From assembly GCA_016207405.1 (NCBI GenBank), contig JACQPQ010000021.1, positions 4,936 through 68,935 on the forward strand: DNA of 64,000 bases, given 5' to 3'. Made by a program: the position numbers and the translations under genes. Shown in pieces: positions 28,581 through 29,785 of the stretch. This DNA is from Gammaproteobacteria bacterium (GTDB lineage Bacteria; Pseudomonadota; Gammaproteobacteria; JACQPQ01). How positions within the stretch are numbered: the stretch's first letter is position 1; each line of letters begins with the position of its first letter. Under the pieces are notes generated by a model, which worked only from the letters and a program-made list of their open reading frames with translations, was not told the origin of the DNA and ran no database searches.

Positions 28581-28613
28581 TAGATGGCTTACATGAGGAG
28601 CACTCGTTAAATT

Positions 28614-28700
28614 GACTATATATAAGTATTCTACTAATATTTAAACGGACTATATATAAGTATTCTACTAATATTTAAACGGACTATATATAAGTATTCA
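28614..28700. repeat. 2.6 tandem copies of a 34-bp AT-rich unit (GACTATATATAAGTATTCTACTAATATTTAAACG)
   Basis: The copies are exact direct repeats at 28614..28647 and 28648..28681, with a partial copy at 28682..28700. They sit between divergent ubiA (ATG at 28580) and the mobile-mystery-protein-A gene (ATG at 28705). Confidence 0.8.
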
Positions 28701-28704
28701 AATT

Positions 28705-29181
28705 ATGAAAACACAAATTTTAGCATTAAAACAATTGGATCGTCGATTAGAATCTTTGCAAGCAGCTAAACCATGTTTTAAATCCTTGAGAGGGGTGTGG
28801 ATTAGAACTATTCGCAAGACCCTGGGGATGACTCTTTCTCAATTAGCGAGTCGTCTGAACGTTAATCGTTCTCGCGTGATTAGAATAGAACAGGATGAGG
28901 TTCGAGAAGCCCTTACTCTAAAGACACTCCATCAAGTATCTGAAGCCTTGGGTTGCGAGCTCGTGTATGCGCTTGTACCAAAATCAACTTTATATAAGGC
29001 AGTGAAACAGCAAGCAAATAAGATAGCCGCACAGAGCTTACGTAGAGTGAGTCACTCTATGGCATTAGAACAGCAGCAGGTCACAGAGCCAGTGCAAGAA
29101 GAAGAATTCCAAGAGTTGGTGAATGAGTTGTTGTCTCGCTCTTTAAAACATCTTTGGGAAGAGAAGGAGAAAAAGCAGTGA
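28705..29181 (+). CDS. Mobile mystery protein A (HTH/XRE-like, TIGR02612-like)
   Basis: It contains IRKTLGMTLSQLASRLNVNRSRVIRIEQDE... and LHQVSEALGCELVYALVP. It is paired with a downstream Fic-domain protein. Confidence 0.65.
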   Translation: MKTQILALKQLDRRLESLQAAKPCFKSLRGVWIRTIRKTLGMTLSQLASRLNVNRSRVIRIEQDEVREALTLKTLHQVSEALGCELVYALVPKSTLYKAVKQQANKIAAQSLRRVSHSMALEQQQVTEPVQEEEFQELVNELLSRSLKHLWEEKEKKQ

Positions 29182-29710
29182 AGTTTAGCTATCCATCAGC
29201 TTCAACACCTCTTGATTTGGATGAAATCAATGGGTTGATTCCAAAACATATTGAAACTCAAGCCGAACTCAATGAATGGGAGCAGTCTAACATTTTAGAA
29301 GCAGCGCATTGGCTAAGAGCGCGGCATCCGGCAGTATCTGATATTCTCGATACTCAATTTATTAGAAGCTTCATCAGAGGATGTTCAGGAAAACTTGGCG
29401 TTGGGTAGGACAATTCAGGCGCAGTAATAAAAATATAGGCATCCATTGGCCATTCATCCCAGAACATTTGAAGCTTTTATGTGATGATATCTCTTATCAA
29501 TTATCTCACAACACTTATGAGTTAGATGAAATAGCTGTGCGGTTTCATTATCGTTTGGTTGTTATTCATCCTTTTGCCAATGGAAATGGTCGGCATGCTC
29601 GATTAATCACAGATGAATTTTTAATCTCGCTAAAAAAACAGCATTTTCTTGGGGCGAGTGGAAGGAAGAGGATGTATATCGAACCACTCGAGTGCGGAAA
29701 GAATATATAG
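29154..29710 (+). pseudogene. Mobile mystery protein B (Fic-domain protein), split by a frameshift near 29375
   Basis: Two overlapping ORFs lie in different frames. The first ends ...DTQFIRSFIRGCSGKLGVG*. The second frame reads KLHQRMFRKTWRWVGQFRRSNKNIGIHWP...HPFANGNGRHARL (Fic motif). The conserved LH.RMF...W.W.GQFR is continuous only if one nucleotide is restored in ttattagaagctt. Confidence 0.65.
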
Positions 29711-29785
29711 AAGCATTACAGGAAGCTGATAGAAATAACTTTAAAAAATTGGTTCAGTTTGTTCGTTCGTAGTTTGGAGAAGTTG

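Follow-up and report, generated by a model that had tools for sequence, protein, structure and literature searches.

In a stretch of 64,000 nucleotides from a gammaproteobacterial contig (JACQPQ010000021.1, assembly GCA_016207405.1; referred to below as the window), the ubiquinone genes ubiC and ubiA are separated by DNA carrying two genes on the opposite strand that belong to the mobile mystery protein A and B families (MMP-A and MMP-B). We consider it probable that an autonomous module of ~1.2 kb, resembling a toxin-antitoxin (TA) system and encoding a helix-turn-helix (HTH) protein and a Fic protein, was inserted at the ubiC/ubiA junction, that its toxin gene subsequently decayed and that its operator was re-duplicated. 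The module would consist of a promoter/operator, MMP-A and MMP-B, and would have entered in reverse orientation at a point where the ubiC stop codon overlapped the ubiA start codon.

A preliminary description of the window had placed ubiC and ubiA on the same strand about 1.2 kb apart, with a plus-strand HTH/Fic pair in the gap. The open reading frame (ORF) map and matches to TIGR01474 and Chor_lyase confirm the first statement, with 1,205 bp between the two minus-strand genes. The second holds for the two families, TIGR02612 and TIGR02613, but not for the integrity of the pair, since MMP-B is broken by two 1-nt deletions. The features of the region are as follows.

27720..28580, minus strand: ubiA, 4-hydroxybenzoate octaprenyltransferase, intact, 286 aa (TIGR01474, 305.5 bits; Pfam UbiA, 4.8e-62)
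28581..28606: left junction of the insert, a 26-bp segment from the ubiA start codon to the repeat array, exact boundary not resolvable (sequence)
28705..29181, plus strand: MMP-A, 158 aa, intact (TIGR02612, 163.9 bits; Pfam HTH_3, 3.1e-09)
29178..29772, plus strand: MMP-B, Fic pseudogene (TIGR02613 fragments; colinearity in three frames with intact homologues)
29773..29815: right junction, 13 nt between the convergent stop codons plus nine novel ubiC codons and a new stop, PGFFTPPAH* (alignment with the related contig L168)
29786..30319, minus strand: ubiC, chorismate lyase, 177 aa including a 9-aa C-terminal extension (Pfam Chor_lyase, 66.4 bits; alignment with L168)

The cut-offs of the profiles used are 275.45 bits for TIGR01474, 23.6 for Chor_lyase, 122.6 for TIGR02612, 124.4 for TIGR02613 and 191 for NF008656. 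UbiA is a full-length ORF that scores above its equivalog cut-off, residues 11-284 matching profile positions 2-278 of 282. UbiC exceeds the Pfam gathering score (66.4 vs 23.6 bits) but falls below the NCBIfam equivalog NF008656 (52.3 vs 191 bits), and it is thus a divergent chorismate lyase, below the cut-off for the E. coli type. Its assignment as ubiC is supported by its position beside ubiA and by 31-40% identity to similarly placed ubiC genes. The Fic/TIGR02613 matches span 29154..29710.

The nearest relative that we found, through a wider search of UbiA proteins, is protein P0123 (68% identical), encoded on contig L168. The synteny there is as in the window, with a divergent arginine decarboxylase gene (speA), ubiC and ubiA in this order. 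The TGA of ubiC overlaps the ATG of ubiA by 4 nt on L168 (ATGA, 4015-4018), and both the cassette and any equivalent of the spacer at 28581..28606 are absent. The two UbiC proteins align through ...EFFL of the window (Leu codon at 29816-29818), where the L168 protein ends (...EYFL*); the window gene continues for nine more codons, PGFFTPPAH, before a new stop at 29786-29788. Given where the ubiC homology ends and the overlap in L168, the insert displaced the original stop/start overlap. Among 80 gammaproteobacterial ubiA loci that were fetched, which take in metagenome-assembled genomes (MAGs) of Coxiellaceae and Legionellales, ubiC lies directly upstream of ubiA in 45, and an intervening insert was seen in none.

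The preliminary description had proposed that a classical ubiCA operon was split here, and had advised looking for related genomes in which ubiC is directly followed by ubiA. L168 and the 45 loci have this arrangement and, together with the nine-codon tail of ubiC, they support an insertion into an ancestrally contiguous pair, the insert occupying about 28581..29815. Relative to the ubiCA pair of E. coli and other Gammaproteobacteria, which is adjacent or overlapping in the 45 loci and in L168, the window retains the two enzymes, their order and their orientation, but they are split by opposite-strand DNA that is probably foreign. The ancestral genes would have been translationally coupled, and the insertion would have uncoupled ubiA as well as lengthened ubiC. 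Two other searches added little: a word-indexed protein search for ubiC homologues returned only ubiC itself, and among the GTDB representatives the best UbiA was at most 58% identical, with no synteny beyond ubiCA.

The arrangement could instead be old and lineage-wide, with ubiA long served by a promoter of its own. The GC content of the cassette (0.36-0.44) does not stand out from the window mean of 0.446, its nearest homologue is only 54-56% identical, so that no recent donor is evident, and no mobility genes were found. We nevertheless regard this as very improbable: L168 has the same synteny and a 4-nt overlap without the cassette, a nine-codon read-on is typical of a displaced stop codon, and MMP-B keeps its family-conserved residues, which argues for recent decay. 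Still harder to credit is a chimera of metagenome assembly joined through the AT-rich repeat. It is true that two Logan contigs end at this point (L001 at 28643, L082 beginning at 28670), so the link from ubiA to the cassette passes through repeated k-mers. However, L082 by itself carries ubiC, MMP-B and MMP-A contiguously, L001 carries ubiA with a complete repeat unit, and the 18-bp site of the repeat occurs nowhere else in the 64 kb. Even if the join were discarded, ubiC would be followed by the cassette and not by ubiA.

The MMP-B gene runs from a GTG at 29178, which shares bases with the stop codon of MMP-A (GTGA) and is preceded at 8 nt by an AAGGAG, to a TAG at 29770-29772. Its coding sequence is split across three reading frames by two 1-nt deletions. 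At the first frame change (~29364-29368) AGAAAG has become AGAAG, and at the second (~29644-29647) a run of five T has become four. In tblastn comparisons the window sequence follows that of three intact homologues (L085, L086 and L087; 195-204 aa) colinearly from one frame to the next; its fragments score 48.9 and 128.5 bits against TIGR02613 and cover profile positions 2-58 and 61-154. Thus, the family match and the Fic motif are present and the intact reading frame of ~195 aa is not. The motif is located as follows.

29567..29602, plus strand: Fic active-site motif, HPFANGNGRHAR, with Asn at the canonical Asp/Glu position (translation)

Apart from the two deletions, the reconstructed protein retains every family-conserved residue, and for this reason the inactivation looks recent. 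We conclude from the sequence that MMP-B is a pseudogene and that the cassette is decaying rather than an active HTH/Fic pair. MMP-B would have been inactivated after the insertion, with MMP-A staying intact.

We also weighed whether MMP-B is still made by programmed frameshifting, or whether the frameshifts are sequencing errors. Both breaks do lie in short homopolymeric contexts (AGAAG, TTTT), and yet either possibility seems scarcely tenable. Two separate shifts would be needed with no slippery heptamer or stimulatory structure evident, runs of 2-4 nt are not error hot-spots of Illumina sequencing, and the intact homologues need no frameshift. The Logan assemblies of two sequencing runs agree with the window at 100%, one contig spanning both frameshifts (L082, SRR12113385) and the other the second only (L083, SRR12113390).

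Loss of a toxin with retention of its antitoxin is the usual fate in TA pairs. MMP-B is lost or broken beside a retained MMP-A at L084, L098, L104, L109 and L114 as well as on the Coxiella burnetii plasmid QpH1. At three of these loci (L098, L104, L114) MMP-A is followed by 1.4-2.3 kb of sequence with no MMP-B-like sequence, and these genes may be orphan antitoxins or have another partner. On QpH1 (L169, 79..1129) CBUA0001 is an MMP-A and the MMP-B frame downstream is interrupted near codon 20 (gattgatccaggtcac); the fic gene annotated there, CBUA0003, begins inside that frame, at 668, so that this copy too is eroded. The QpH1 pair resembles that of the window in its MMP-A (46-47% identical), in its Legionellales host and in the disrupted MMP-B frame, but it is plasmid-borne, lies outside an operon and carries a different lesion.

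The preliminary description had also noted AT-rich 34-bp tandem repeats abutting both the ubiA start and the cassette start. The array is there, separated from the start codon of ubiA by 26 nt and from that of MMP-A by 5 nt, but our comparisons indicate that the repeats are the putative operator array of the cassette itself and not a feature shared with ubiA. Its elements are as follows.

28607..28699, plus strand: tandem array of a 34-bp unit, 2.7 copies, 96% matches (Tandem Repeats Finder)
28614-28631, 28648-28665 and 28682-28699, plus strand: three identical 18-bp AT-rich imperfect palindromes, GACTATATATAAGTATTC, with identical 16-nt spacers; putative MMP-A operator array
28612..28640, plus strand: best predicted sigma-70-like promoter of MMP-A, TTGACT-17-TAATAT (consensus scan, 9/12 matches)

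The 18-nt core occurs three times in the window, always within the array, against 0.03 occurrences expected. Close homologues of MMP-A have the same kind of AT-rich 18-bp imperfect palindrome upstream, again in three copies. We extended the comparison to 80 further MMP-A loci fetched from metagenomes and analysed the 150 nt upstream of the gene in 72 non-identical cases. Direct repeats match best at a lag of exactly 33 bp in 34 of the 72 and at 32 or 34 bp in another 9; at lag 33 the best 16-nt match averages 12.0, compared with 8.2 in shuffled sequences, and a second peak appears at lag 66. Three related 18-mers are present in 59 of the 72 regions, 37 of them with 33/33 spacing. In about 30 of the 59 the third site ends at most 6 nt from the MMP-A start codon, and it often includes an AGGT Shine-Dalgarno sequence. 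The -35 element of these family promoters (TTGnnn) is usually found within the first spacer, which places site 2 between the -35 and -10 elements. Palindromic sites overlapping the module's own promoter, as expected of a type II TA system, are thus seen at the level of sequence in these 59 promoters.

The type of half-site covaries across MMP-A loci with the first residues of the HTH recognition helix. Helices beginning SQPR pair with AATAAC..GTTATT half-sites, N(K/R)QR with GTCTATA..TATAGAC, (V/T/A)QSR with ATCACATATGTGAT and SKSRIP with TTCATATATATGAA, and the helix VNRSRV, found in the window and in L087 and L085, pairs with GA(C/A)TATA-type sites. Such covariation is expected if MMP-A reads the sites. 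By the mechanism that we propose, the MMP-A HTH would bind three AT-rich palindromes ~33 bp apart over the promoter and ribosome-binding site and so repress its own operon.

The window is alone in having all sites and spacers identical. At the 58 other loci the mean identity is 0.73 between sites (maximum 0.87) and 0.37 between spacers (maximum 0.64), against 1.0 for the window spacers. This suggests that the array was rebuilt in this lineage by tandem duplication of a single 34-bp unit of site plus spacer, and the rebuilding would account for the absence of the usual -35 element from the spacers and of the Shine-Dalgarno sequence from site 3. The predicted -35 hexamer, TTGACT, is found in the first repeat copy only, copies 2 and 3 reading CGGACT.

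Identity of the units, spacers included, is also what simple slippage would give, and one could take the repeats for a fortuitous AT-rich minisatellite or a regulatory element of ubiA that has nothing to do with MMP-A binding. That binding is putative, and the usual -35 and Shine-Dalgarno features are absent here. We find this explanation improbable, since the three-site layout at ~33 bp recurs in the 59 independent MMP-A promoters whatever the neighbouring gene, and the window site resembles those of L087 and L085, which share its recognition helix.

MMP-A is built from an N-terminal helix, an Xre-type HTH and a C-terminal two-helix hairpin (AF2 model, mean pLDDT 83; hairpin helices at 96-121 and 128-144). 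In Foldseek comparisons its HTH is structurally closest to the antitoxins HipB and HigA2 and to the C-proteins that control restriction-modification systems. HipB, HigA2 and the restriction-modification controllers bind their operators as dimers. The most conserved element of MMP-A among 120 homologues is at the C-terminus, where the motif [H/Q]-[S/T]-M-x-L-E-x-Q stands at the end of the first hairpin helix of the model.

29053..29076, plus strand: putative Fic-inhibitory (alpha-inh) element HSMALEQQ, H117-Q124, with Glu122 as the proposed inhibitory glutamate (family conservation)

The M, L, E and Q are invariant in all 120 homologues, and S/T is present in 114. The motif fits the (S/T)xxxE(G/N) inhibitory motif of class I Fic antitoxins, with [ST]xxxE found in those 114 sequences and the strict G/N form in 60 of the 120. 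In the structure of Fic-1/AntF, the antitoxin AntF is a two-helix bundle that touches the second Arg of the Fic motif through S24 and E28, and inhibition is lost in the E28G mutant (PMC13327609). MMP-B, on the other hand, contains no conserved [ST]xxxE[GN] motif of its own: in an alignment of 48 sequences, no column has it in more than 2. A class II or class III protein with an intramolecular inhibitory helix was therefore ruled out. The MMP-A and MMP-B genes overlap by the GTGA in the window, and are -4 or -1 nt apart in 31 of 49 loci.

In the model that we favour, the module would be a type II TA-like system of the Fic class I kind, in which MMP-B is a Fic-fold enzyme without its own inhibitory helix and the [S/T]MxLExQ hairpin of MMP-A would place a glutamate in the active site of the Fic protein, in the manner of VbhA, FicA and AntF. 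DNA binding by MMP-A, inhibition of MMP-B through Glu122 and toxicity of MMP-B are what we infer from these features. The pair appears to work in the manner of a class I Fic TA module whose antitoxin is fused to an HTH, and we do not count it as a proven member of that class.

The resemblance to the class I systems VbhT/VbhA, EcFicT/FicA and Fic-1/AntF lies in a partner gene upstream of an overlapping Fic gene, in a Fic protein that lacks an intramolecular helix, and in a partner with S/T-x-x-x-E on a two-helix hairpin, comparable to S24 and E28 of AntF (PMC13327609). The known antitoxins, however, are helical proteins of ~50-70 aa with no DNA-binding domain, whereas MMP-A has ~155 aa and an N-terminal Xre HTH. 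The MMP-B motif HxFxNGNGRxxR also differs from HxFx(D/E)GNGRxxR, and the residue after the MMP-A glutamate is often D, A, K or Q. MMP-A has no detectable sequence homology to VbhA or FicA. Like HipBA and HigBA, the module has an HTH closest to HipB/HigA2, several palindromic operators in its promoter, and an antitoxin gene that comes first and overlaps the next. Unlike theirs, its toxin fold is Fic, not a kinase or RNase, and the three sites at a fixed 33-bp phase, the last over the Shine-Dalgarno sequence, are specific to the MMP family as far as our tools show. In the Phd/Doc system, the toxin Doc, which like Fic belongs to the Fido superfamily, is neutralised by a DNA-binding antitoxin through its C-terminal tail, and the antitoxin represses its own operon at adjacent palindromes. 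The DNA-binding fold of Phd is a different one, the Doc kinase motif is HxFx(D/N)(A/G)NKR, and an MMP-B fragment matches the Doc profile TIGR01550 at E = 0.01 only.

The pair might alternatively act in anti-phage defence or as a regulatory modifier; MMP-A would then sense or regulate instead of blocking the active site. Matches of MMP-B include the PADLOC defence candidate PDC-S04 (1.4e-21) and SoFic, its Asn-variant motif suggests non-canonical chemistry, and the MMP family is essentially without experimental literature. We judge this alternative unlikely. PDC-S04 is an unvalidated candidate only, and a type II TA system fits the order and overlap of the genes, the putatively autoregulatory operator array, an HTH like that of HipB/HigA, the recurrent loss of MMP-B beside a retained MMP-A and the conserved SxxxE motif. 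Roles in TA and in abortive infection are, moreover, compatible.

The preliminary description had associated the pair with mobile DNA. Its distribution agrees with this, while a transposase, terminal inverted repeats and a target-site duplication were all lacking at the insert. No exact copy of the window MMP-A is on record elsewhere. Its nearest homologues, 54-56% identical, occupy four unrelated chromosomal settings, each with its own flanking housekeeping genes, and the contigs also encode proteins with Ank, U-box and Legionella_OMP domains. At three of these four loci the stop codon of MMP-A is overlapped by a full-length Fic gene, and the fourth (L084) keeps a remnant of 51 aa only. No integrase or transposase was found near the four; other TA pairs are present (HicAB, TacA/GNAT). 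By tblastn the family is found on 259 plasmid records (Agrobacterium 101, Rhizobium 52, Coxiella 19, Vibrio 18, and others), and MMP-A had no match in 50,697 phage records, so that a phage origin of the cassette was set aside as unsupported. A profile search of 1.84 billion representative proteins returned at least 1,106 MMP-A clusters (50% identity) at E <= 1e-30. Five proteins of 353-1366 aa (P0242, P0243, P0244, P0245 and P0278) are made up of 4-14 tandem copies of the N-terminal/HTH module of MMP-A. In the literature the term "mobile mystery protein" is met in four papers, in passing mentions only, and the family is effectively uncharacterised.

Several observations weigh against the explanation that we prefer. 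With regard to the insertion, no host relative above 70% identity was present in any of the collections, so its age and exact boundaries are not fixed. The ORF map has no transposase or integrase between ubiA and ubiC, no terminal inverted repeats or target-site duplication flank the insert, and no conserved end sequence follows the MMP-B stop among 25 loci. Short matches at both ends of the insert, such as CTACC, are within chance. None of the marks by which an insertion sequence, a transposon or an integron cassette is recognised (a transposase or integrase gene, inverted repeats at the ends, a duplicated target, attC) is thus seen in the insert, and its mobility is supported by the distribution of the family, not by a mechanism of movement. 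With regard to the operator, the pairing of helices and half-sites is confounded by phylogeny, shared ancestry contributing to it. The expression signals of MMP-A in the window are atypical, the spacers lacking a TTG -35 element and the third site an AGGT Shine-Dalgarno sequence. Because both Logan contigs break inside the repeat (28643, 28670), the figure of 2.7 copies comes from the MAG assembly alone. With regard to inhibition, the conserved glutamate is followed by Gln in the window and by G/N in only 60 of the 120 homologues, and hidden Markov model searches of the MMP-A tail against PDB and Pfam (E <= 10) detected no homology to VbhA or FicA, the hits being to the HTH only. Finally, HxFxNGNGRxxR is read in the window and in all 49 MMP-B homologues, so that the canonical AMPylation motif HxFx(D/E)GN(G/K)RxxR is absent throughout, with Asn in place of D/E. 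Judging from this motif, the chemistry of MMP-B may differ, and with Asn at the catalytic position the protein may neither AMPylate nor act as a toxin.

The ubiA gene is intact and is therefore presumably expressed. The preliminary description held that it must be transcribed from within or through the insert, which we consider a sound inference. Two features bear on this.

28683..28711, minus strand: candidate weak promoter toward ubiA, TTTTCA-17-TATAGT (consensus scan, 9/12 matches)
27434..27449, minus strand: the only minus-strand terminator-like hairpin of the region, ~270 nt downstream of ubiA (hairpin scan)

No intrinsic minus-strand terminator was found between ubiC and ubiA, and with none in its path, read-through from the ubiC promoter is possible. 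Neither strand showed a stable RNA fold at the convergent junction or the repeat array relative to shuffled sequences (z = 0.35-0.56), and an Rfam scan of the window found three distant tRNAs only, with no terminator, attenuator or structured RNA at the locus. The insert contains no minus-strand ORF of 40 aa or more. Long untranslated RNA is prone to Rho-dependent termination. A read-through transcript would carry an untranslated stretch of 1.2 kb, antisense to the cassette, on which Rho could act. The other route would be the weak minus-strand promoter in the operator array, whose -10 hexamer lies inside operator site 3; if it is used, the MMP-A that this genome retains would affect ubiA by occupying the array.

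Other TA modules and foreign-looking DNA were noted at or near ubiA. On L168 a HepT/MNT toxin-antitoxin pair (4827..5487) lies directly downstream of ubiA, so that TA modules seem to have landed beside ubiA repeatedly in this lineage. At one of the 80 ubiA loci (L056, 77..798, minus strand) an MMP-A/MMP-B pair lies ~5 kb upstream of ubiA, outside ubiCA, which is probably a coincidence. In the window, ~470 bp downstream of ubiA, a 267-aa ORF (26445..27248, minus strand) has 57-62% GC against 44.6% for the window and no Pfam hit, and may be a foreign island. A second TA pair, of the HI1419 (RelE/ParE) and HI1420 type, is found at 25062..25611 (minus strand). Its toxin of 77 aa covers model positions 3-64 of 95 and also looks truncated, and the toxin ORF overlaps the antidote ORF by 50 nt.

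Taken by itself, we regard the locus as a neat, fairly ordinary case in which a TA-like module entered an operon and then decayed. It preserves stages of that decay, with the toxin dead, the repressor retained and the operator re-duplicated, and it raises the question of how an essential respiratory-quinone gene stays expressed. A more far-reaching proposal would make MMP-A/B a distinct, uncharacterised branch of Fic TA systems, marked by an Xre-fused blocking helix, a phased three-site operator and Asn-variant chemistry, and would have the orphaned repressor and its re-duplicated operator co-opted to drive and regulate ubiA. We think this improbable; if it were true, ubiquinone synthesis would be under the control of a former antitoxin. 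For the family as a whole, the comparative work yields a testable mechanism for an unstudied pair, namely an HTH-fused inhibitor acting through Glu122, one 18-bp operator type for each specificity group, phased at 33 bp, and HxFxNGNGRxxR as a diagnostic Fic motif, and these predictions can be tested in tractable plasmid hosts such as Agrobacterium, Rhizobium and Coxiella (QpH1).

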